This document shows, piece after piece, positions 1 to 22,101 of a stretch of 64,000 nt of DNA. How positions within the stretch are numbered: position 1 is the stretch's first letter; each line of letters begins with the position of its first letter. Under the pieces are notes generated by a model. It saw only the letters and a list, made by a program, of their open reading frames with translations. It was not told the origin of the DNA and did no database searches. The stretch comes from Actinomycetota bacterium (lineage in GTDB: Bacteria; Actinomycetota; UBA4738; HRBIN12). The stretch is from assembly GCA_035512775.1 (NCBI GenBank), contig DATKDI010000024.1, forward strand, positions 18,077 through 82,076, given 5' to 3'. A program made the position numbers and the translations under genes.

Positions 1-153
1 TAGGTTCTTGCTTCGAACAAGGCGAGCTACCCGCAAACGCTGTGCAAGCACTGCACCTCGCCGCATGGAGCACGCGTGGGTCACAATGATCCCTAGCCCT
101 GGACCGTCTTCCAGTCCAGCGATTTCAACGTCATCGAGTACGTCCCCCTGCAT
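1..153 (-). CDS. Hypothetical protein, 5' part only. The ORF starts at ATG 153-151 and runs off the left edge of the window.
   Basis: The minus-strand frame is open from 153 to position 1 with no stop (MQGDVLDDVEIAGLEDGPGLGIIVTHACSMRRG...). No family was recognised. It lies in the lower-GC island at the window start. Confidence 0.2.
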   Translation of the reverse strand, partial: MQGDVLDDVEIAGLEDGPGLGIIVTHACSMRRGAVLAQRLRVARLVRSKNL

Positions 154-243
154 CAAGGGACGGTCGGCGCTGACTTCTGCTCCTCTAGATAAGAAGAGGT
201 CGACTGGTTTCCCGGGGAATTCCAGCCCACGCGTCAAGTTGCT

Positions 244-864
244 TCACCGCTCGCGGGGCCGGGTCACCAACTGCCCGTCATGCCAACGGCTGACCTCAAA
301 GTCTGAGGCATACCGCTCGCGCCAATCGGGCATGCTTTCGTCCAGAACTGCAGTTGCCTCCATCCTGTGGCTTGCCCAGTCCAGCACCAAATCGGTCCGA
401 TCCAGAGCATAGAGATCGCCCGGCGAAATCGGGGCCTCCGAGGAAATTGGCACTTCCATCCAGCTCGCAGGATCGTCGACGAGGTAGTCCTTAGCGAGGA
501 ACTCGACCATGGCCAGAAGCTGGGCAAGCCGCCGACGGTTGGGCCCTGTGGGCGTCTCGCCGTTTCGCCACTTACGCAACGCCGGCACGCTCACACCCAC
601 CATTCGGGCAATGGCACTCCAAGCGAACCCATAACCAGACAGCGCTTCAAGGAGCTCGGTTACAGCCCTCTGAGCGTGGGGAGCGGTTCTGGTGTCCAGG
701 TTATGCAACAGAGCTCGCCTGTGGAGATCCTTTGCGTCATCGCTGAGCATGTTGGATTCGTCGCGAAGTCCCGCCGCTGCCCGCACCAACTGTCGGACGG
801 TAGTCTCGGTGCTGGTGGGCCGTGCCACCTCGGTTGATGTCGACGTGGGAGCCTGGTCGCTCAT
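244..864 (-). CDS. Helix-turn-helix DNA-binding protein (XRE/MerR-like HTH), 206 aa.
   Basis: HTH-like segment WSAIARMVGVSVPALRKWRNGE. Its ATG overlaps the stop of the upstream gene by 4 bp (ATGA coupling at 861-864). Local GC is lower than in the rest of the window. Confidence 0.55.
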   Translation of the reverse strand: MSDQAPTSTSTEVARPTSTETTVRQLVRAAAGLRDESNMLSDDAKDLHRRALLHNLDTRTAPHAQRAVTELLEALSGYGFAWSAIARMVGVSVPALRKWRNGETPTGPNRRRLAQLLAMVEFLAKDYLVDDPASWMEVPISSEAPISPGDLYALDRTDLVLDWASHRMEATAVLDESMPDWRERYASDFEVSRWHDGQLVTRPRER

Positions 865-1694
865 GTGCTCACCACCTTCCTGAGAACGTCATCTCTGAGT
901 TTGTCTGTAATCGCCGCTTCAAACAAGTCTCTGATAGGTCGATGAAGTTGAACGGAGAGGTTCATCAACCAGTCCAAATCCATTCCATTTGTGACCTCAG
1001 CGGCCGCCCAGAAGCTATCGATATCAATGAGAAAGAACGGGCCAGGGGAAGTGCGCTTGGGTACTCGGAGTGGTCCATCCTGATTCACGGCGAAGCCCTC
1101 CATGGCCCCGTATCTCAGGACAACAGACTGATTCTCCTCGGTCGAATAGTTGACAGCACCCTGCCATGATTGGGGAATGAGCTGGGCGGCGTTCACTCCG
1201 AGGGCGATTTGGTCGATCAGAGCGCTCTGGACATAGGGAGTCCACATATTGGGTCCACTTTCTAGAGACGGAACCCTTATCTCGTCGATATAGCGAAGTC
1301 CCACTCGCTCCATACCGACGATAAGCCCCGATTCGGCCAGGACGCCGAACACACGATTCGCCAAAGGGAGGAACGAGGTGAAACTGCGGTATGAGGTGGT
1401 CTCAATTGTTGTGTTGGTCCCCGAGACCGTGGCAACGGTCGTGCGATCCCGGGACGCGAGCTTGAACACAGACCTGATTGGAGGAGTACTCACCGAGGAA
1501 GCCCCTCCGACGGAGAGAACGAACCCCTGTTCCCCGCCCATCTCCGCCACGGGAAGCAGATCGTCCAGGGCCTCGAGAAAAACCGCCAGCTGGTCTTGTG
1601 TGCCCAGCCGCGGCGACAGGGGATAACGCACCTCATGGGCTACGAGCCGGAGAGGGGCGTTGGGATAGACTTCGTGCTCATCCAACGAAACCAC
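861..1694 (-). CDS. Conserved hypothetical protein, 277 aa, with no recognisable catalytic motif. It is the first gene of a two-gene operon with the HTH protein.
   Basis: Long ORF with protein-like composition. It is translationally coupled to the downstream HTH gene. An AT-richer putative promoter region lies at 1695-1885. Confidence 0.5.
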   Translation of the reverse strand: MVSLDEHEVYPNAPLRLVAHEVRYPLSPRLGTQDQLAVFLEALDDLLPVAEMGGEQGFVLSVGGASSVSTPPIRSVFKLASRDRTTVATVSGTNTTIETTSYRSFTSFLPLANRVFGVLAESGLIVGMERVGLRYIDEIRVPSLESGPNMWTPYVQSALIDQIALGVNAAQLIPQSWQGAVNYSTEENQSVVLRYGAMEGFAVNQDGPLRVPKRTSPGPFFLIDIDSFWAAAEVTNGMDLDWLMNLSVQLHRPIRDLFEAAITDKLRDDVLRKVVST

Positions 1695-1885
1695 TACTCA
1701 TACTCCTTCCGAAACCGATTCATGAACCAGATGTTATACTGGTGGGCTCATTTTGTCCATACCGAACTCGGCTCAGTTTCCTGGCTCAGAAATAGCTCCA
1801 CTGCAAGCGATACCCCACGCCGGACCGGTCCACCCCGTCGGCGGCCAAGCTGACGGATGTCTCTGTCGGCTCCTAGGGTCGAGGG

Positions 1886-4804: not shown

Positions 4805-5082
4805 CCGGGCGATCTCGTCGCCGCTGGCCCCGGCGTCTGGCGGCAGCCGTCGGCGTCGTGGTTCTCCTTCTGGCCGCGGTCTACGCGTGGGCGTTGACAT
4901 CCGTGGACTCGTCCACGGATGCGCGGGCGATGGTCTGGAGGGACGCCGACGTCGGCGACCAGCATCGGTTCCCGTCTCGCGTCATCCCGGCCGGCACCGC
5001 GGCCTCCAGGTGCCGAAGCGCGTCCACGGTCGAGCGCATCTGCCGATCGCACCAGTCGCCCCCACAACGAAGACCTTCATGA
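4801..5082 (+). CDS. Small membrane-anchored hypothetical protein (94 aa), possibly a truncated N-terminal fragment.
   Basis: The ATG at 4801 overlaps the arginase stop (ATGA). Arg-rich N-terminus followed by a TM helix (LAAAVGVVVLLLAAVYAWAL). The rest of the long frame looks non-coding. Confidence 0.3.
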   Translation: MTGRSRRRWPRRLAAAVGVVVLLLAAVYAWALTSVDSSTDARAMVWRDADVGDQHRFPSRVIPAGTAASRCRSASTVERICRSHQSPPQRRPS

Positions 5083-5205
5083 CGACCTCCTCTGAGATGG
5101 TTCTCGTCTTCTCACCCCCGAGACGCCTGAGGAGGCCGGGCTGTGACAGTTCGCCCCCAGCGGTACGGTGGGTGGAGGTCTCCGGGCGGAAGAGAAGGAG
5201 CCACG

Positions 5206-5928
5206 ATGGGTGCCGATGATCGACAGGTAGTCGAGGACCTCGTTGCGGCAGATCCGCGGAAGGGCTCGGCCGACAGCCGCTCGTTCGCGATGGGCGATCC
5301 CGAGGAGACCACCACCTGGGAGCGAGCCAGAGAGCGCGGCATCACGGACGAGCAGTGGGCCCGCTTCGAGGATGCCGTGGCGGAGATGTTCGGCGCGTTC
5401 GGGATGGACCTCGGCACGGAAGGCACCGAAGCCACACCTCGTCGGTTCGTCCGCGCGCTCTTCGAGGCAACGGCCGGCTACGAAGGAGATCCGAAACTGT
5501 TGACTGCCTTCCCCACGGAATGCCGCGGCGGGCCGGATTGCTCGATCAGCCAGGTGATCGAAGGACCGATCCCGTTCTTCTCTCTGTGCGAGCACCACGC
5601 GTTCCCGTTCTACGGCGTCGCGCACGTCGGCTACGTCGCCCACGAGCAGATCATCGGCATCTCCAAGATGACCCGGCTGGTTCGCGTGTACGCGCGGCGC
5701 TTCACGGTGCAGGAGCGAGTCGGCCAGCAGATCGCCGACCACCTGAACGAGATGATGCAGCCGCACGGCGTCGCGGTGCATCTCCAGGCAGCTCACCTGT
5801 GTACCCAGATGCGCGGGGTGCGCGAGGAGCGTTCCCGGACCTCGACATCGTTCTGGCGAGGGAACTACGAGCGCGACCCGGAGATGCGTCGAGAGTTCCT
5901 GACGGTCGCGCAGCGATCGCTTGAGTGA
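5206..5928 (+). CDS. folE: GTP cyclohydrolase I.
   Basis: Conserved FolE motifs CEHHAFPFYGVAHVGY and IGISKMTRLV. Start is the internal Met MGADDRQ; the upstream in-frame extension is unlikely to be translated. Confidence 0.85.
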   Translation: MGADDRQVVEDLVAADPRKGSADSRSFAMGDPEETTTWERARERGITDEQWARFEDAVAEMFGAFGMDLGTEGTEATPRRFVRALFEATAGYEGDPKLLTAFPTECRGGPDCSISQVIEGPIPFFSLCEHHAFPFYGVAHVGYVAHEQIIGISKMTRLVRVYARRFTVQERVGQQIADHLNEMMQPHGVAVHLQAAHLCTQMRGVREERSRTSTSFWRGNYERDPEMRREFLTVAQRSLE

Positions 5929-6770
5929 CCTCGGCGCACGCCTCGAAGTGCTGTACGAGGAAGCGCCCTCTTCTGACGGGCTCTCTCTGCCGTCCGAGCT
6001 GGAGGTCGCTTACGGCGGCCCGTTCGCACTCGCGGACCAGATCGTCTACGGGAACTTCGTAGAGTCGATCGACGGGGTCGCCGCGATCCCGGGCGTGAAG
6101 GAGTCCTCTGCCGTGATCAGTGGAGGAGCGCCGGCCGACCGGCTCGTGATGGCGCTCCTTCGCGCGGTGGCCGACGCCATCGTGATCGGGGTCGGGGACG
6201 TTCGCGGAACACGGTGGTCCCTGGACAGCGGAGCGGGCGTACCCGCCCACCGCCGACCTGATCCCCCGCGCACGAGAGATGGTCTCGGCGAACGGGACGG
6301 CGCCCACCCTCGTCGTGGTCACGGCGAGCGGCGGACTTCCAGCGGATCATCCGGCTCTCGCGTCGGCGCTCATCGCCACGACCTCGGCCGGGGCTCAAGC
6401 GATCGCCGAGAAGGAAGTGGCGTGCGCCGGCGTGATCGATGTCGGCGCGTCGGACGACGTGGATCCGGCGACGGTGATCGAGCGCCTGCGCGAGCGCGGG
6501 TATCGACGCATCCTCACCGAAGGGGGGCCCTCGCTGATGGGGTCGATGCTCGAGGCATCCGTCGTCGACGAGCTCTTCGTGACGATCTCGCCGAAGCTCC
6601 TCGGCGGAGGAGAAGATCGCCCTCCACTGACCGGTGAGGCCGATCTCCTCGGGAAGGCTCCCGATCCACGTCTCGTGAGCGTCCGCCGGGCGGATGATCT
6701 CCTCTTCCTGCGATACCGGCTCGGCGCGAAACGGTCTGACGCGCTGCTTGTCACGGATGAGGGGCGTTAG
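5921..6770 (+). pseudogene. RibD C-terminal-domain / dihydrofolate-reductase-like reductase carrying a +1 frameshift (G3 to G4 at about 6194-6197).
   Basis: N-terminal part in frame 2 (..SSAVISGGAPADRLVMALLRAVADAIVIG). C-terminal part in frame 0 (GTFAEHGGPWTAERAYPPTADLIP..ILTEGGPSLMGSMLEA..LFLRYRL). Deleting one G from gtcGGGGacg restores a roughly 278-aa protein. Confidence 0.6.
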
Positions 6771-6796
6771 AGGGACCCTGAACTCTTGGCGACCCG

Positions 6797-6847
6797 CCTT
6801 ATCTATGGAAGACTGCTGGATAAGGAAAAGGCAGTTCCCTTATCTAA
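6797..6847. promoter_or_regulatory. AT-rich palindromic operator-like site upstream of the Fic gene. CCTTATC-N15-GATAAGG, with an extra direct copy of CCTTATCTA at 6839-6847.
   Basis: Read directly from the sequence. It lies in a local low-GC island in a roughly 70% GC background, followed by a GGAGG RBS before ATG 6877. Confidence 0.45.
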
Positions 6848-6876
6848 GAGCGCCCGGAGGAAAAGGGAGGAAAAGG

Positions 6877-8031
6877 ATGACGAGCACCAGGGCCGGTCGG
6901 TACGTCCGGCAGCCGGGGGGATATCAGGCTTTCATCCCCTCGCCTCTTCCTCCGCCCGCTATGACGACCGACCCCCGGCTCCTGTCCTTGCTGTCGACGG
7001 CCGACTTGGCCCTGGGGCGGCTCGACGGGGCGACGAAACTACTCCCCGACCCCGACTTCTTCGTGCTCATGTACGTCCGCCGCGAGGCTGTCGTGTCCAG
7101 CCAGATCGAGGGCACGCAGGCATCGCTGATGGACGTCCTCGAGTTCGAGGCGGAGATGGATCAGGCCGAACGTCGAGTGGACGTCGTCGAGATCGCGAAC
7201 TACGTCACGGCGATGAACCACGGGCTGGCGAAGCTCCCCCAGTTGCCGATCTCGCGACGCCTGCTGTGCGAAGTGCACGCCGTCCTGATGACGGACGTCC
7301 GCGGCGGCGAACCGCAGAAGACACCCGGGCAGTTCCGGAAGTCCCAGAACTGGATCGGGGGGGCGTCGCCGGCTACGGCGCGCTTCGTGCCGCCTCCTTG
7401 GGAAGAGGTGGGGCCGGCCTTCGCCGACCTCGAGCGGTTCCTCCATGACACTGAGCCGATGCCAGCCCTCATCAAGATCGGCCTGGCGCATGCGCAGTTC
7501 GAGACCATCCACCCGTTCCTCGACGGGAACGGGAGGATCGGCCGGCTACTGATCAGCTTCTGGCTCGTCGAGCAGGAGATCATCCAGCGCCCGATCCTGT
7601 ATCCCTCGCTCTTCTTCAAGGAGCACCGGGAGGACTACATCGACCGCCTCCAGGCGATCCGTGACGACGGTGCCTGGGAGGACTGGTTGGCATTCTTCGT
7701 CGATGGGATCGGTCAGGTGGCGGAGGAGGCCACCGGGCGCGCCTACGAGATCGTTCATCTGCGCGAGGACCATCAGCGGCTCGTCGCCGAGAAGCTCGGC
7801 AAACGGGCGCCGAATGCGCTCGCCCTGCTCGGGCATCTGTTCCGTCAGCCGGTCGTGAGCGCCAAGCTCGTGGAGTCGATGGTGGACGTATCCCAACCGA
7901 CGGCGTCAGCGCTGGTGCGAGATCTCGAGGAGATCGGGATCCTTCGAGAACGAACGGGGAAGCGGCGGAACCGGCTCTTCGCCTACCAGCCCTACCTCGA
8001 CCTGTTCCCGGGCGCGACGTCGAGGAGCTGA
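6877..8031 (+). CDS. Fic-family protein (AMPylase/Fido domain) with an N-terminal inhibitory helix (class II) and a C-terminal winged-helix-like domain.
   Basis: Fic motif HPFLDGNGRIGR (HxFx[D/E]GNGRxxR). Inhibitory motif SSQIEG ([S/T]xxxE[G/N]). 384 aa. RBS GGAGGAAAAGG before the ATG. Confidence 0.85.
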   Translation: MTSTRAGRYVRQPGGYQAFIPSPLPPPAMTTDPRLLSLLSTADLALGRLDGATKLLPDPDFFVLMYVRREAVVSSQIEGTQASLMDVLEFEAEMDQAERRVDVVEIANYVTAMNHGLAKLPQLPISRRLLCEVHAVLMTDVRGGEPQKTPGQFRKSQNWIGGASPATARFVPPPWEEVGPAFADLERFLHDTEPMPALIKIGLAHAQFETIHPFLDGNGRIGRLLISFWLVEQEIIQRPILYPSLFFKEHREDYIDRLQAIRDDGAWEDWLAFFVDGIGQVAEEATGRAYEIVHLREDHQRLVAEKLGKRAPNALALLGHLFRQPVVSAKLVESMVDVSQPTASALVRDLEEIGILRERTGKRRNRLFAYQPYLDLFPGATSRS

Positions 8032-8090
8032 TCCGAGCCCGAGTCACCGGCTCCGCAGTTGGCGATCCGACGTCCTGCGAGCCTCTCTCG

Positions 8091-9302
8091 CTAACCGACA
8101 AGCAGAGCGCGCGCCTCGTAAGCCTCGATCGGCGAGCTCATCCCCTTCAACCTGACCTCGCCGATGCTCTTGAATCGGAGGTCCTCGCGCTCGCCCGTCA
8201 GCCGGACGACCTCGGCGTCCACCAGCGTCTGGCCGGGGTCCGCCGCCCCGGCGAGACGTGAGGCGAGGTTCACCGTCCGACCGTAGTAGTCGCCGTCCTG
8301 GAAGATCACCGGACCCGCGGCGACACCGGCGTGGGCGGGCGGCAGGCCGACGTCGGCGGTGCGGCGACCGACTTCGATCGTCGCGAGGACGGCCGCGGCG
8401 GGATCGCGGAACGAGAACATCACGCCGTCGCCGAGCCACTTCACCGCCCTGCCGTCGCGGCGCCCGACCTCCTCGTGGACCAGCAGCGCGAGGCGGGCGC
8501 CCAGCTCCGCCGCCGCCTCGTCGCCTCGTTCCTCCGTCAGGCGCGTGTAGCCGGTGAGGTCGAGGAACGCGAACGCGGTCGGCCGCTCGGTGCGTTCGTA
8601 CAGCCCCATCGCTTCGATCGCGCTCTCCATGTGCTGGACGCCGTCGTCGGTCCAGACACGCTCCTGCTGGCGCCGGAAGATCGCCATCACGAGCTCCTCC
8701 CTCTGCAGGTCGAGCTCGGCGCCGATCTCGTTCACGATGCCCAACATCTCGCCGTGACTGCGGCCGGCGTCGAGGAGCGGCATCTCGATGTGTCGATGGA
8801 AGACATCCGCGTCCGTCTCGACGACCCGGCTGAGCGCTTCGGTGAAGACCCGAACGAGCCGCAGCTCCACGTCGGCGCCGACCCCTGCGGCGATCGCCCG
8901 GCGTGGCGCCTCGAGCATCCCCGGGAGGTCCGCCGGCGCGGGATCATCCGGCCCGGGCCGGACCTTCCCCAGGGCCTCCTCGAACGCGAGGACGAACTCG
9001 ATCGGCAGGTCCATCTCGTCCGCCACCTGCCGGTACGTCCGCGCGGACAGCGGCGCCCAGCGGTACTGCGGTTCGTCCAGGAACGCGAAGGAGAAGCGGC
9101 CCTCCTGGATCGAGCGCGCGATCGCGTCGATCGACAGTCCCCCTCGATCGGATGCCCGGACGAACCGCACGCGGTACACGTCCGATCGGAAGAACGCGCC
9201 GTCGTCGCCGGAGCGCAGGATCCCCAACTCGACGAGCCGGGCCACGTAGGACTCGTCGACGCCTGCCTGCTCGGCGAGCTCCTTCGGGTCGCGGGCGGTC
9301 AT
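8091..9302 (-). CDS. Adenylate/guanylate cyclase (class III CHD) protein with an N-terminal HTH-like region.
   Basis: C-terminal cyclase motifs FLDLTGYTRLTEERGDE, KWLGDGVMFSF and YGRTVNLASRLAG. The N-terminus LAEQAGVDESYVARLVELGIL is HTH-like. Confidence 0.75.
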   Translation of the reverse strand: MTARDPKELAEQAGVDESYVARLVELGILRSGDDGAFFRSDVYRVRFVRASDRGGLSIDAIARSIQEGRFSFAFLDEPQYRWAPLSARTYRQVADEMDLPIEFVLAFEEALGKVRPGPDDPAPADLPGMLEAPRRAIAAGVGADVELRLVRVFTEALSRVVETDADVFHRHIEMPLLDAGRSHGEMLGIVNEIGAELDLQREELVMAIFRRQQERVWTDDGVQHMESAIEAMGLYERTERPTAFAFLDLTGYTRLTEERGDEAAAELGARLALLVHEEVGRRDGRAVKWLGDGVMFSFRDPAAAVLATIEVGRRTADVGLPPAHAGVAAGPVIFQDGDYYGRTVNLASRLAGAADPGQTLVDAEVVRLTGEREDLRFKSIGEVRLKGMSSPIEAYEARALLVG

Positions 9303-9379
9303 CGAGGCCGGATGATAGGCCGCACGCGGCCGACGGATGTCCCGACGCACCTCGGGGGTCGGGTGAGAGCCCGGACGAT

Positions 9380-10153
9380 CTACTTCGGGACCGAGGGCGA
9401 CGGCGTCAGCCGCGACATCGTCGCCGGCTCGACGTACGCGATCTCGGCGCCGGGCGAGCGATCGAGGACCGCCTTGGCCCGGGCGTACATCTCGTCCTGC
9501 CGGCGCACGAGCGTCTCCTCCTTCTCCTCGGGATCGTAGGCGCCGGCCACCGCCCAGTGATCCCTGAGCTCCTTCACCGATGAGGCGTGGGTGCGCAGCT
9601 CGAGCCTGCGACGCTCGTCGATCGCGAACACCCCTCGCCCGACGACCGTCGCGACCGCTGCCTCCGCATGCCGGAGGTCGTCCTCGTAGTCGAACCCGGG
9701 ATCGTCCTCCGAGAAGAGCAGCTCCCCGTTCGACCTGATCTCGACGGATGGGACCTCGAGGGCGGGATGGACCTCGATCAGCGATCCGGCTGGCCTTAGC
9801 AACCGGTGGATCTCCTCAAGGGCATGGACCATGCCCTCGTGCTCCATTCAGCAGAGCGACCAGGACAGCAGCGCCACGTCGAAGACGTCGGCGTCGCTGG
9901 CGGCGGCGAATCCCTCGAAGGTGATGTTGCGGAACTCGATCCGCTCGTTCGGCGCTTCCGAGAGCCGCTTCTGCGCCCTCGCGATCGAGTCCGCGAAGGG
10001 CTCGATCGCCGTCACGTGGGCGGCTCGGTCCGCGTAGCGCCACGTGAGGCGGCCGTCGCCGCACCCGATCTCCAGGACCTCGCGTCCCTCCAGCTCGACG
10101 AGTTCGAACAGCGCGTCGGTCTCGTTGCCTTCGGGATCGGTCCGGATGGTCAA
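9380..10153 (-). pseudogene. Class I SAM-dependent methyltransferase interrupted by an in-frame TGA.
   Basis: Motif I LEIGCGDGRLT. The reading frame is ...ALLSWSLC-TGA-MEHEGMVHALEEIHRLLRPAGSL, i.e. post-motif II continuity across a TGA at 9845-9847 (plus-strand tca). Possibly a TGG to TGA change, or a consensus error. Confidence 0.55.
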
Positions 10154-10231: not shown

Positions 10232-11521
10232 ATGGACGCGGCGAAGTCACGCACAGGAGCGTTCCGGCGGCTCATCGAGATCGGCTCTCAGCCCGAGGAC
10301 GACGAGGCCGAATCGCTTCGGAAGCGGGTTCTTGTCCTCGCGGCGAGCATCATCACCGGGCTCGCGACGGTCTGGGTCGTCAGCTACGCACTGATGGGGC
10401 TATACGTATCGGCGCTGATCCCGTTCACGTACCAGGTCGCCTCCGTCGCGAACCTCGCGGTCTTCGCCAGGACGAAGCGATACCGCCTGTTCAGGTTCAG
10501 CGAGCTCGCCCTCAGCCTGATGTTGCCGTTCCTGCTGCAGCTCAGCCTCGGCGGCTTCTTCCCGTCCAGCGCGGTCGTCCTGTGGTCGTTCACGGCGCCG
10601 CTCGGCGCGCTCCTGTTCGCGGGTCGACGTTCCGCCGCCCGGTGGTTCCTGGCCTTCCTCGGCGTGGTCGCGGCTGCGGCGCTGCTCGATCCGATCGTCC
10701 CCGACCGGACCGCGATGATCCCCGACTGGGTGATCGTCCTGTTCTTCGCCAACAACATCCTGGGAGTGACGGGAACGAGCTACCTGCTGCTCTCGTACTT
10801 CGTCCGCGAGCGCGATCGTGCCGCCGAGACCCTCGCTGCCGAGCGGGAGCGGTCCGAGCGACTGTTGTTGAACGTGTTGCCGGAGCCGATCGCGGCACGG
10901 CTCAAGAGCGGAGAGCCGCTGATCGCCGACGGTATCCCCGAGGTAGGAGTCCTGTTCGCGGACATCGCCGGCTTCACGCCGATGGCGGAACGGATCACGC
11001 CCCACGAGGTGGTCCGGCTGCTCGACCGGATCTTCAGCCGGTTCGACGCTCTCGCGCTCGAGCACGGCCTGGAGAAGATCAAGACGATCGGCGACGCGTA
11101 CATGGTGGCGTCGGGATTGCTCGAACCACGGCGGGACCACGCGGAGGATCTCGCTCGCATGGCGCTGGCGATGCAGGACGAGGTCCGGCGGTTCGACGCG
11201 CTCGAGCTCCGGATCGGCATCGACATCGGGCCGGTCGTCGCGGGCGTGATCGGCCAGCGGAAGTTCAGCTACGACCTGTGGGGCGACACCGTGAACACGG
11301 CGAGCCGGATGGAGTCGCACGGCGTCATCGGGGGCATCCACGTCACCGAGCGCGCCCGGAGGCGGCTCGCCGACGCGTTCGACTTCGAGAGCCGCGGCGT
11401 GATCGACGTCAAGAGCAAGGGACCGATGACGACGTACCTCCTCGTCGGAGCGCGGCCGTCCGGTGACGAGGCGCGCTCGTCCGTCTCGACAGGCGAGCGC
11501 CACCCGGGAACGACCGACTGA
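10232..11521 (+). CDS. Membrane-anchored class III adenylate/guanylate cyclase.
   Basis: About six N-terminal TM helices followed by a CHD domain (VLFADIAGFTPMAE, KTIGDAYMVASGL, WGDTVNTASRMES). Confidence 0.8.
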   Translation: MDAAKSRTGAFRRLIEIGSQPEDDEAESLRKRVLVLAASIITGLATVWVVSYALMGLYVSALIPFTYQVASVANLAVFARTKRYRLFRFSELALSLMLPFLLQLSLGGFFPSSAVVLWSFTAPLGALLFAGRRSAARWFLAFLGVVAAAALLDPIVPDRTAMIPDWVIVLFFANNILGVTGTSYLLLSYFVRERDRAAETLAAERERSERLLLNVLPEPIAARLKSGEPLIADGIPEVGVLFADIAGFTPMAERITPHEVVRLLDRIFSRFDALALEHGLEKIKTIGDAYMVASGLLEPRRDHAEDLARMALAMQDEVRRFDALELRIGIDIGPVVAGVIGQRKFSYDLWGDTVNTASRMESHGVIGGIHVTERARRRLADAFDFESRGVIDVKSKGPMTTYLLVGARPSGDEARSSVSTGERHPGTTD

Positions 11522-20279: not shown

Positions 20280-21332
20280 CTAGCTGACCTCCGCTCTGCG
20301 AAAACGGACCGGAAGGCAACGTCGTTCCACGGTGATGACGACTTTTCCTTGCACCTGCCCTGTTTCCAGGTAGCGGATCGCCTCCGGAACCTCGCTCAAG
20401 GGGAAGGTCCTGTCGATGACCGGAGTGATCTTCCCGGCTTCGATGAGCTCCTTCAGGACGACCAAGCGGTCGCCCGGATCCTTGGCGCCGCGGAAGGGAT
20501 GCAGCTGGCTCACGAACGGGGCGATCACCATCAGCTTGAAGAATCGACCCAGGCTTCCGACCCAACGATGGCCCGAGCCTCCGTACTGATCGTGCCCGAT
20601 CAAGACGTAGATCCCCTCAGGAGTGAGCGCGCGCTTGAGGTCCGACCACGGATGGTTCCCCGCGATGTCGAGGACGAGGTCGTAGCGCTCGGCGCTCCGA
20701 GTGAAATCTTCCTGCGTGTAGTCCAGGACCCGGTTCGCGCCGATAGATCGGAGCATGTCGAGCTTCCCGGGGCTGTCCACTGCGGTCACGTCCGCTCCGT
20801 ACGCCTTGGCGAGCTGCACGGCGGTGGTCCCCACACCTCCACCCGCTCCGTTGATCAAGACCTTCTGTCCCGACTGGACCCGTCCCTCATCGCGGATGCC
20901 CTGGACCGCGATCTGACCCGAGGTGAGGACGGCCGCGGCCTGTTCGAACGTGAGGTTGGCCGGTTTCCGCTCGAGCCCAGCTTCGGGAACGGCCGCGTAC
21001 TCGGCATAGGTGCCACCGTTGCGCCAAAGGTTGGCCCCGATGCTCGGTCCGAACACCTCGTCCCCCGGTCGGAAGCGCATCACGTTCCGGCCCACCGACT
21101 CGACGGATCCCGCCAGATCGGTACCCGGGACGGCGTTCTTCGGTCTGCGCGATCCGGATCCCATGATGCGGAGCACGTAGGGCACCCCTCGCAGGGCGTG
21201 CCACACATCAGGATGGACCGAGGTCGCGCGGACCCGGACCAGCACCTCGTCATCTCCGGCGGTCGGCCTGTCGATCTCTCGGAGCTCGAGGACGTCGGGC
21301 GAGCCGTACCGCTCCTGGACGATCGCCTTCAT
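20280..21332 (-). CDS. Zinc-type alcohol dehydrogenase / NAD(P)H quinone-oxidoreductase (MDR family), intact.
   Basis: MKAIVQERYGSPDVLEL... with the cofactor motif LINGAGGGVGTTAVQLAK. The ATG overlaps the upstream methyltransferase stop (ATGA at 21329-21332). Confidence 0.75.
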   Translation of the reverse strand: MKAIVQERYGSPDVLELREIDRPTAGDDEVLVRVRATSVHPDVWHALRGVPYVLRIMGSGSRRPKNAVPGTDLAGSVESVGRNVMRFRPGDEVFGPSIGANLWRNGGTYAEYAAVPEAGLERKPANLTFEQAAAVLTSGQIAVQGIRDEGRVQSGQKVLINGAGGGVGTTAVQLAKAYGADVTAVDSPGKLDMLRSIGANRVLDYTQEDFTRSAERYDLVLDIAGNHPWSDLKRALTPEGIYVLIGHDQYGGSGHRWVGSLGRFFKLMVIAPFVSQLHPFRGAKDPGDRLVVLKELIEAGKITPVIDRTFPLSEVPEAIRYLETGQVQGKVVITVERRCLPVRFRRAEVS

Positions 21333-22057
21333 CGTCCGTAGACCGACACGACGTTGCCCGTCGAGGTGAACGGCTCCCGGTTCCAGCCGTCCCAACGCTC
21401 CTTCAGACGCAGCCCGGCGATCCGCGCCATCAGGTCGAGCTCGCTCGGCCACGTGTATCGCTGCACGATCGGGAAGAGCCGTACGCCCTCGTTGGTCAAG
21501 CGAACGTGAGTCTCCTCGTGCCGCTGAGCCACCGGGTCGTGTCGACCGACATCGAACCAGACCTCATCGACGCCGATGGACTCCGCATGGACGTATCGGT
21601 CGTCGTACACGCGGTAGAGGAAGTTCGGGACGCCGGCCTCCACGAGGAACGATCCGTCGTCGGTGAGATGGGCGGCGACGCTCTCGAAGCAGCGCACCTG
21701 GTCCTCCTGGGTGAGCAGGTTGTGGAACGTGTTGTACACCACGTAGATCAACCGGTACTCGCCCGAGGCCGGCACATCGGCGAAGTCGCCCATCGTGACC
21801 GAGATCTGGTCACCACCCGGCTTCTCGCGCAGCCTGGCCACCATCGCGGGTGAGATGTCGATGCCGTCGACGCGGATCCCCCGCGCGGCGAGAGGCAGCG
21901 CGATCCGACCGGTGCCGATCGCGAGCTCGAGAGCGGGGCCACCGCCTGCGAGTTGCTCCAGGAATGAGACGGCCGCCTCCTCATCTCCCCGTGGCTCGTC
22001 GTCGTAGCTCTCGGCGGTCTCCTCGCCGAAGCTCATAGCCGGATCGTAGTTCTCCAT
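21329..22057 (-). CDS. Class I SAM-dependent methyltransferase.
   Basis: Motif I LELAIGTGRIALPLA and an overall MT fold. It is co-operonic with the ADH. Confidence 0.75.
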   Translation of the reverse strand: MENYDPAMSFGEETAESYDDEPRGDEEAAVSFLEQLAGGGPALELAIGTGRIALPLAARGIRVDGIDISPAMVARLREKPGGDQISVTMGDFADVPASGEYRLIYVVYNTFHNLLTQEDQVRCFESVAAHLTDDGSFLVEAGVPNFLYRVYDDRYVHAESIGVDEVWFDVGRHDPVAQRHEETHVRLTNEGVRLFPIVQRYTWPSELDLMARIAGLRLKERWDGWNREPFTSTGNVVSVYGR

Positions 22058-22101
22058 GTACCAACCTTATCCACGCGACGGTGCGCATCGGAAGGAGACT
22101 T

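Follow-up and report, generated by a model that had tools for sequence, protein, structure and literature searches.

The subject of this analysis is a stretch of 64 kb from contig DATKDI010000024.1 of an Actinomycetota bacterium, in the following called the window. It carries a gene for a class II Fic protein (fic; 6877..8031, + strand), which is preceded by a palindrome, ATAAGG-N12-CCTTAT (6820..6843), with half-site centres 18 bp apart. Judging from the conservation of this sequence and from characterized relatives, the palindrome most likely lets the Fic protein switch off its own gene. We consider it probable that positions 6785-8031 make up a self-contained promoter-operator-Fic cassette, in which a dimer of the protein would repress its own gene and the enzyme, held by Glu78, would AMPylate a host protein when triggered. 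The protein itself is intact but ordinary; it belongs to a known family of enzymes that AMPylate proteins, the SoFic family, which is of the single-gene anti-phage/toxin kind.

A conserved palindrome upstream of fic

Three CCTTATC boxes were found within 6797-6846. Box A (CCTTATCTA; 6797..6805, + strand) is located 17 nt 5' of box B and represents an auxiliary half-site. Box B (6817..6825, - strand) reads TGGATAAGG on the + strand and CCTTATCCA on the - strand and is the left half-site of the candidate core operator, while box C, again CCTTATCTA (6838..6846, + strand), is the right half-site. In the 64 kb CCTTATC was seen five times on the two strands against 1.66 expected, and three of the five copies are located within 48 bp here. 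When one mismatch was allowed, the 9-mer box had seven matches in the window against 1.33 expected. The full palindrome was found once.

A first-pass annotation of this DNA had described CCTTATC (6797-6803), followed after 15 nt by GATAAGG (6819-6825), and a third CCTTATCTA as a palindromic operator. All copies are located where it placed them, and the repeats are a real conserved cis-element. The palindrome as such was therefore borne out, but the choice of A and B as its core was not: boxes B and C form a longer inverted repeat (GATAAGGAAA-N6-TTCCCTTATC) and are the conserved core, whereas box A is degenerate in some orthologs.

Single CCTTATC boxes are located elsewhere in the window, at 1275 and 22065. 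The one at 22065-22073 is an isolated CCTTATCCA; on the - strand this is TGGATAAGG, with the ATG of the gene at 21329-22057 following after 7 nt. It is probably the Shine-Dalgarno sequence of that gene, and the box sequence would thus be Shine-Dalgarno-like in this organism.

Orthologs with 69-96% amino acid (aa) identity were gathered from metagenome and genome assemblies, and 16 distinct ones had upstream DNA (individual loci are given L numbers). With at most one mismatch, ATAAGG-N12-CCTTAT was present in all 16, positioned 31-60 nt 5' of the start codon. ATAA and CCTTAT were invariant across the ortholog palindromes; the spacer was fixed at 12 nt in length and free to vary in sequence. Across the 1.29 Mb of DNA collected, the same pattern occurred 27 times, and 25 of these occurrences were at ortholog sites. 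The remaining two are single-mismatch chance matches, and perfect copies were found only before fic orthologs. Box A was kept in the window and in L081, L082, L163, L167, L168, and L180, had one change in L161 and was degenerate in L165 and L169. Its distance to box B was 17 nt, or 16 nt in one case. By this comparison the conserved unit is boxes B and C, with box A as an auxiliary element.

DNA similarity between the window and the orthologs begins at 6785, a blastn start common to L161, L081, L165, L167, and L163, and ends at 8015-8039, within about 15 bp of the fic stop at 8031. The unit of fic and palindrome was found in at least 10 different gene neighbourhoods. Its flanks contain AraC and methyltransferase genes in L161, DCC1-like and WYL regulator genes in L163, an epimerase gene in L165 and L167, DUF4386 and a cyclase fragment in L168, a phosphodiesterase gene in L169, ABC transporter genes in L176 and a type I restriction R subunit gene in L175, and other loci differ again. 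Because the site is kept with fic while the flanks change, the Fic protein appears as the sole constant trans factor, and it has a winged helix-turn-helix (wHTH) of its own.

We also surveyed the upstream DNA of more distant homologs (97 non-redundant loci, 31-65% identity) for inverted repeats stronger than 95% of shuffles. Such repeats (p ≤ 0.05) were found in 47 of the 97 loci against 4.9 expected, an excess that is somewhat overstated by the mononucleotide shuffle used as null, though still large. They were mostly located at -50 to -110, AT-rich and clade-specific, and many contained TTATC/GATAA or CTTAT/ATAAG. From these sequences a palindrome in its own promoter looks like a trait of the family. 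The exact box sequence, as far as these alignments go, is clade-specific. Exact CTTATC or GATAAG was found in the 250 bp upstream of fic in 11 of 72 distant loci, which is about chance, and six of the 11 belong to one Paracoccaceae group; a relaxed AAGG-N12-CCTT was found among the distant homologs in L086 (65% identity) alone. Viral contigs scanned for ATAAGG-N11-CCCTTATCT gave at least 120 matches. We dismissed these as chance matches, since those listed are on AT-rich contigs (median GC content 37.5%) and none of those listed adjoins a fic homolog.

A different arrangement was observed in Paracoccaceae and other alphaproteobacteria (L041, L045, L051, L052, L056, L060, and L070). These have up to six TGAGATA(A/G) boxes at -110 to -1, arranged as palindromes (TATCTCAGAAA...TTTCTGAGATA), and the array is more elaborate than that of the window clade.

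Position of the boxes in the predicted promoter

The similarity to the orthologs starts (6785) at a -35-like hexamer, TTGGCG (6786..6791, + strand). An extended -10-like element, TGgAAGACT (6806..6814, + strand), which is TGGCACACT or TGGCAGACT in the orthologs, belongs to a conserved block (alignment A3) and was recognized by its spacing and its xAxxxT pattern. CTTGGCG is kept in 7 of the 10 aligned upstream regions, those of the closer orthologs, 17 nt before the TGG(C/A)A(C/G)ACT block. We read TTGGCG-N17-TGnAAGACT as a predicted -35 and extended -10. With this assignment, box A is located in the spacer between -35 and -10, and the predicted transcription start falls on box B.

The ribosome-binding region (6856..6876, + strand) contains two GGAGG motifs (6856-6860 and 6866-6870), located 16 and 6 nt before the ATG. 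The second GGAGG results from a 10-bp tandem duplication (GGAGGAAAAG twice; direct-repeat family D1) that is found in the window only, whereas all nine aligned orthologs (A3) have a single copy of the unit.

The protein encoded by fic

The open reading frame (ORF) of fic runs from ATG 6877, preceded by the GGAGG Shine-Dalgarno sequence, to the stop codon at 8029-8031 and encodes 384 aa, which is the length of nearly all close orthologs. The first-pass annotation had placed the feature at 6780-8031. Its end is correct, but a start at 6780 was rejected in favour of ATG 6877, which has both the Shine-Dalgarno sequence and the ortholog-like length. An in-frame ATG further upstream (6694) was rejected as well, since no ortholog uses the extension.

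The assignment to the SoFic type comes from Pfam, PADLOC, PDB, AF2, and Foldseek comparisons. Pfam matches were obtained for Fic_N (1.5e-26), Fic (2.1e-18, 67.4 bits with a cut-off of 24) and HTH_13 (aa 317-366, 8e-6), and the Pfam SoFic-like_C model alone scored 16.2 bits, under its cut-off of 27. The PADLOC SoFic model PDLC03963 matched aa 15-377 over profile positions 5-358 of 361 (3.4e-116, 386.6 bits). A phmmer search against PDB aligned aa 33-377 with SoFic 35-366, i.e., essentially the full length, with E-values of about 1e-35 for the SoFic structures 3EQX, 3ZCN, and 9TCH and 2e-38 for 9VJC. The AF2 model (pLDDT 86.6, pTM 0.87) was found by Foldseek to superimpose on SoFic-type structures (3zcn, 3eqx, and 7cb8) with TM of 0.80-0.84 over about 370 columns. 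By sequence and model the protein is an intact SoFic-type class II Fic protein, made up of Fic_N, the Fic core and a C-terminal wHTH.

The active-site loop H212PFLDGNGRIGR223 (HPFLDGNGRIGR; 7510..7545, + strand) fits HxFx(D/E)GNGRxxR and is aligned with HPFIDGNGRTGR of SoFic in the PDB alignment. Residues H212, P213, F214, D216, G217, N218, G219, R220, G222, and R223 were invariant among 30 homologs (alignment A1). The inhibitory helix (aa 59-77; 7051..7113, + strand), identified from the AF2 model and the SoFic alignment, ends in S74SQIE78G79. This SSQIEG (aa 74-79, nt 7096-7113) fits [S/T]xxxE[G/N], is located N-terminal to the Fic core, pairs with SSEIEN of SoFic and was invariant from S74 to G79 across the 30 homologs. 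Class II Fic proteins have SoFic as their structural archetype, and its inhibitory glutamate is E73, located in SSEIEN (PMC3667792; bioRxiv 10.64898/2026.07.09.737422). By alignment E78 is the equivalent of SoFic E73, i.e., the predicted inhibitory glutamate. The first-pass annotation had called the protein class II, with an intact active-site loop and an inhibitory motif matching [S/T]xxxE[G/N]. The domain search agrees with this on all three points: the Fic motif is not degenerate, and the inhibitory motif aligns.

A long N-terminal helix (aa 33-54; 6973..7038, + strand), found in the AF2 model and in the SoFic alignment, corresponds to the SoFic helix that has a role in dimerisation (bioRxiv 10.64898/2026.07.09.737422), and a dimer is predicted here by analogy. 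The C-terminal wHTH covers aa ~308-374 (7798..7998, + strand) and is delineated by HTH_13 at 317-366, by the AF2 elements H329-336, H340-352, E356-358, and E368-370, and by the alignment with the SoFic wHTH through 377. In the model aa 340-352 (QPTASALVRDLEE) probably form the recognition helix; of these, P341, T342, and A343 were invariant in the homolog alignment.

Comparison with characterized Fic proteins

SoFic of Shewanella oneidensis (SO_4266; PDB 3EQX/3ZCN/9TCH) has the same domain order, with N-terminal helix, inhibitory S-x-x-x-E-(G/N), Fic core and wHTH, and the core motif HPF(L/I)DGNGR(I/T)GR is common to both proteins. The identity is about 25-26%, and the window is from a high-GC Actinomycetota-like genome. 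As a dimer, SoFic binds the 100 bp that directly precede its own start codon, where the exact site was not mapped (bioRxiv 10.64898/2026.07.09.737422, a preprint of July 2026). The candidate palindrome is located in a comparable place, 31-57 nt from the start codon on its upstream side, whereas the site sequences are not comparable since that of SoFic is unmapped. The EF-Tu residues T65/T62 are AMPylated by SoFic, and this depends on the dimer (bioRxiv 10.64898/2026.07.09.737422); proteins of the SoFic family were reported as single-gene anti-phage systems (PMC12249575). The window protein matches the model of the 'SoFic' system of PADLOC/DefenseFinder; an EF-Tu target and an anti-phage role would apply here by analogy only.

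In Yersinia pseudotuberculosis the class II Fic protein CccR, which has a helix-turn-helix (HTH), represses its own promoter and needs to dimerise for binding (PMC9755527). The DNase footprint of CccR contains AGATAATCAT-N26-ATGATAATCT at -35/-10 (PMC9755527). CccR (PDB 7XUX) resembles the window system in its SARIEG inhibitory motif, its C-terminal HTH and the AT-rich inverted repeat at its own promoter, and the CccR half-site AGATAA resembles T(A/G)GATAAGG of the window. The protein match is weaker than for SoFic (E 4.9e-15, aa 68-280 only; TM 0.55-0.60). In the CccR operator 26 bp separate the boxes, whose centres are 36 bp apart; in the window the spacer measures 12 bp, the centres are at a distance of 18 bp and a third box is present. 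CccR is also an effector of a type VI secretion system that targets FtsZ, whereas no secretion context was seen near the window fic.

The closest solved actinobacterial relative is a FIC-domain protein of Mycobacterium marinum (7CB8; full-length E 4.3e-33, TM 0.79-0.81, 28% identity), for which no functional or regulatory account was found in the searchable literature. CbFic2 of Coxiella burnetii (PDB 8CIL) is likewise a class II Fic protein with a wHTH, and DNA binding by its C-terminal domain shifts the balance between AMPylation and deAMPylation (PMC10628234). It is distant from the window protein (E 9.5e-10, TM about 0.57), its DNA binding is largely non-specific and its target is host histone H3.

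A model for autoregulation

We propose that a dimer of the protein would bind the boxes by its two wHTH domains. Since the boxes overlap the promoter and the predicted transcription start, binding would repress, i.e., the bound dimer would block its own transcription. Such negative autoregulation would keep the amount of this potentially toxic enzyme low and buffered. In the inhibitory helix, Glu78 would hold the enzyme AMPylation-incompetent and possibly deAMPylating until a trigger, most plausibly phage infection, leads to AMPylation of an essential host protein and growth arrest. Possible types of target are EF-Tu switch I, as for SoFic, and FtsZ, as for CccR.

Several observations weigh against this model. 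A generic sigma-70 scan found no promoter in the upstream region. The HTH_13 match passed its cut-off by a narrow margin (26.2 bits vs 26.1). NCBIfam NF046030 'protein adenylyltransferase Fic', the SoFic equivalog model, scored 161.1 bits with a cut-off of 550; this score, far under the cut-off, indicates a distant subfamily to which the SoFic target is not simply transferable. The protein is thus, by sequence, a SoFic homolog of a distant subfamily and no ortholog or equivalog of S. oneidensis SoFic. The predicted arrangement is one dimer spanning boxes B and C, and the half-site spacing of 18 bp is half of the 36 bp in the CccR operator. The palindrome is probably transcribed, which leaves room for a role in RNA, and the null of the distant-homolog survey was lenient in the way described above.

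A more far-reaching version of the model would be that the three-box site (A-N17-B-N12-C) holds the enzyme DNA-bound and catalytically 'safe', so that a trigger would both derepress the gene and unleash AMPylation, with the half-sites perhaps adding control on the mRNA. The analogy is with SoFic, in which dimerisation governs AMPylation as well as DNA binding, and with CbFic2, which is switched between AMPylation and deAMPylation when it binds DNA. We regard this version as speculative and rather improbable. If true, the Shine-Dalgarno-like ATAAGG and the anti-Shine-Dalgarno-like CCTTAT half-sites could constitute a second layer of control, acting on the mRNA.

Alternative explanations for the palindrome

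The B-C palindrome could act as RNA instead, either as a 5' hairpin that stabilises the transcript or by toggling with a pairing between box C and the Shine-Dalgarno sequence to control translation. The palindrome is located 3' of the proposed -10, and the fold of the window's 5' untranslated region has it as its first element, with -9.3 kcal/mol for the hairpin alone. Box C (TCCCTTATC) is complementary at 8 of 9 positions to GAAAAGGGA in the Shine-Dalgarno region (pair I7), in the minimum-energy fold of L169 and L179 box C is paired with an ATAAGG copy beside the start codon, and ATAAGG resembles a Shine-Dalgarno sequence, with the isolated copy before the gene at 21329-22057 as a probable ribosome-binding site. 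However, the hairpin energy is uneven among orthologs (-1.6 to -13.5 kcal/mol), and for 6 of the 16 the minimum-energy fold does not contain the hairpin. Because the six core pairs are invariant, they contribute nothing to a covariation signal. The bases of the inner pair 10-21 are unpaired in 9 of the 16 sequences, those of the outer pair 3-28 in 7, and covariation was not clearly over that of shuffles (score, 26/500; pairs with changes in both partners, 311/500). Box A, which is located 5' of the -10 and so is presumably untranscribed, is conserved too, and for the relatives SoFic and CccR, binding to promoter DNA in double-stranded form was shown by experiment. A protein that recognizes duplex DNA is the better fit for half-sites that do not vary and keep their distance, combined with a conserved box that would be untranscribed. 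The support for an RNA hairpin is weak, and we consider this a minor and unlikely alternative.

If a protein recognizes the boxes, it could also be an unlinked host regulator, i.e., a lineage-wide transcription factor, rather than the wHTH of Fic itself. The marginal Pfam score of the wHTH and the lone boxes at 1275 and 22065 would agree with this. On the other hand, a site for such a regulator has to be reconciled with a full palindrome that is present once in the 64-kb window, that has perfect copies in 1.29 Mb of related loci only before fic orthologs, and that stays with fic through at least 10 gene neighbourhoods. Distant fic clades each have a distinct palindrome of their own, which fits a regulator co-evolving with the gene and not a shared host factor, and the precedents of CccR and SoFic favour self-binding. 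We therefore find a host regulator very unlikely and prefer repression by the Fic protein.

Origin and neighbourhood of the locus

The first-pass annotation had also suggested that fic was horizontally acquired as part of a low-GC island of about 45% GC; fic would then be a recently acquired foreign island with the AT-rich patch marking the insertion edge. The GC content given holds for about 54 bp only (44% over 6795-6848), and 'island' is an overstatement since the intergenic region 6771-6876 has 53%, the gene 66% (0.661) and the window 67.8%. The AT-rich stretch coincides with the conserved regulatory boxes and is simply the promoter/operator. Both the GC content of fic and its GC3 of 0.865 are within the range of the neighbouring genes (GC3 0.79-0.905).

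Remnants of a shared neighbourhood were found as well. Two adenylate/guanylate cyclase-domain genes are located 3' of fic (8091-9350 on the - strand and 10232-11521 on the + strand), the first of them convergent with fic and 59 nt from its stop. L161 and L162 share this downstream flank (window 8032-8174 and 9252-9321), i.e., the two ends of the first cyclase gene, and lack its middle part (window 8175-9251). A cyclase gene or fragment is found near fic in L167 and L168 too. On the other side, window 4972-5149 contains short remnants of an NAD-dependent epimerase gene, which is intact and divergently adjoins fic in L165, L166, and L167. Because the window has a remnant where relatives have the intact gene, insertion of folE and a RibD_C-like gene (5143-6770) between the epimerase and fic apparently took place in its lineage, while nothing points to a gain of fic itself. 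Recent acquisition would be in line with the 599 plasmid records in which a homolog spans 80% or more of the protein, with a phage protein family match (phrog_5978, 4.8e-84), with homologs at 40-65% identity in many phyla, and with more distant orthologs in unrelated neighbourhoods, some beside restriction genes or an apparent recombinase fragment. The plasmid homologs are all under 60% identity, and the family is certainly mobile over long time scales. For this copy, recent horizontal transfer was rejected on GC content, GC3 and the residual synteny with L161/L162 (cyclase flank), L165 and L167 (epimerase), and L167 and L168 (cyclase nearby), and we hold it to be quite unlikely. Since remnants of a shared neighbourhood persist in close orthologs, fic looks resident in the lineage, and local insertions and deletions around it account best for the differences of the window.

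Restriction-modification genes were observed next to some members of the family. In L175 (1390-3835) a family member is located beside the type I restriction R subunit gene, and the plasmid matches H5-H8 (Synechocystis pSYSM-type records) have an annotated type I S subunit adjoining. These neighbours fit a defence-island association for the family.

Three further observations concern the window outside fic. Window 1-1800 is a genuine lower-GC segment (54-62% vs about 68-70% in adjacent DNA). The ORFs at 244-864 and 861-1694 on its - strand had no Pfam or PADLOC match and just a weak phrog_296 'DNA transposition protein' match (E 7e-4), and as a candidate for foreign DNA this segment is more convincing than the fic locus. 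The RibD_C-like (dihydrofolate-reductase-like) gene at 5921-6770 appears to be split over two frames (5921-6637 and 6279-6770), probably by a frameshift; Pfam RibD_C matches the second part only (profile positions 70-181). At 9380-10153 on the - strand, a SAM-dependent methyltransferase gene has one in-frame TGA (stop 9848-9850; ...LLSWSLC*MEHEGMVHALEEIHRLL...) between halves that are contiguous and in the same frame. The gene may be a pseudogene, or the TGA a sequencing error or a codon that is recoded.

Absence of a conserved antitoxin gene

In the EcSofic-AS1 pair of E. coli H397, a 47-aa antitoxin is encoded downstream of the Sofic gene, and toxicity of EcSofic needs the Fic histidine and dimerisation (PMC12249575). 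EcSofic belongs to the same protein family, but the window fic is without a conserved small downstream ORF. No downstream ORF of at least 25 aa was found to be common to the 16 orthologs; the similarity between orthologs ends at the fic stop, and small ORFs beyond it are not shared. There is thus no conserved partner or antitoxin ORF among the orthologs compared, and on this point we concur with the first-pass annotation, which had noted no separate antitoxin ORF.

A 47-aa ORF is located downstream of fic in L165 (4432-4572) and L166 (3988-4128; ...LLGHAQASFTLATY...). The L166 ORF was considered as an AS1-like antitoxin and rejected, since it is present in L165 and L166 only and seems to be a C-terminal piece of a recombinase. 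By motif only, it resembles a tyrosine recombinase at its catalytic C-terminal end and hints at an old mobile-element remnant.

Implications for the SoFic family

SoFic-type Fic proteins are counted in many censuses of defence systems, while their regulation is barely known. Knowledge of the family itself is unchanged by this locus. What the locus and its orthologs give is a precise, phylogenetically footprinted candidate operator, ATAAGG-N12-CCTTAT with an upstream box, by which autoregulation is reduced to a question that can be put to a 30-bp oligonucleotide. Most members of the family may carry a clade-specific palindrome in their promoter, and each wHTH and its operator would then co-evolve as a pair.

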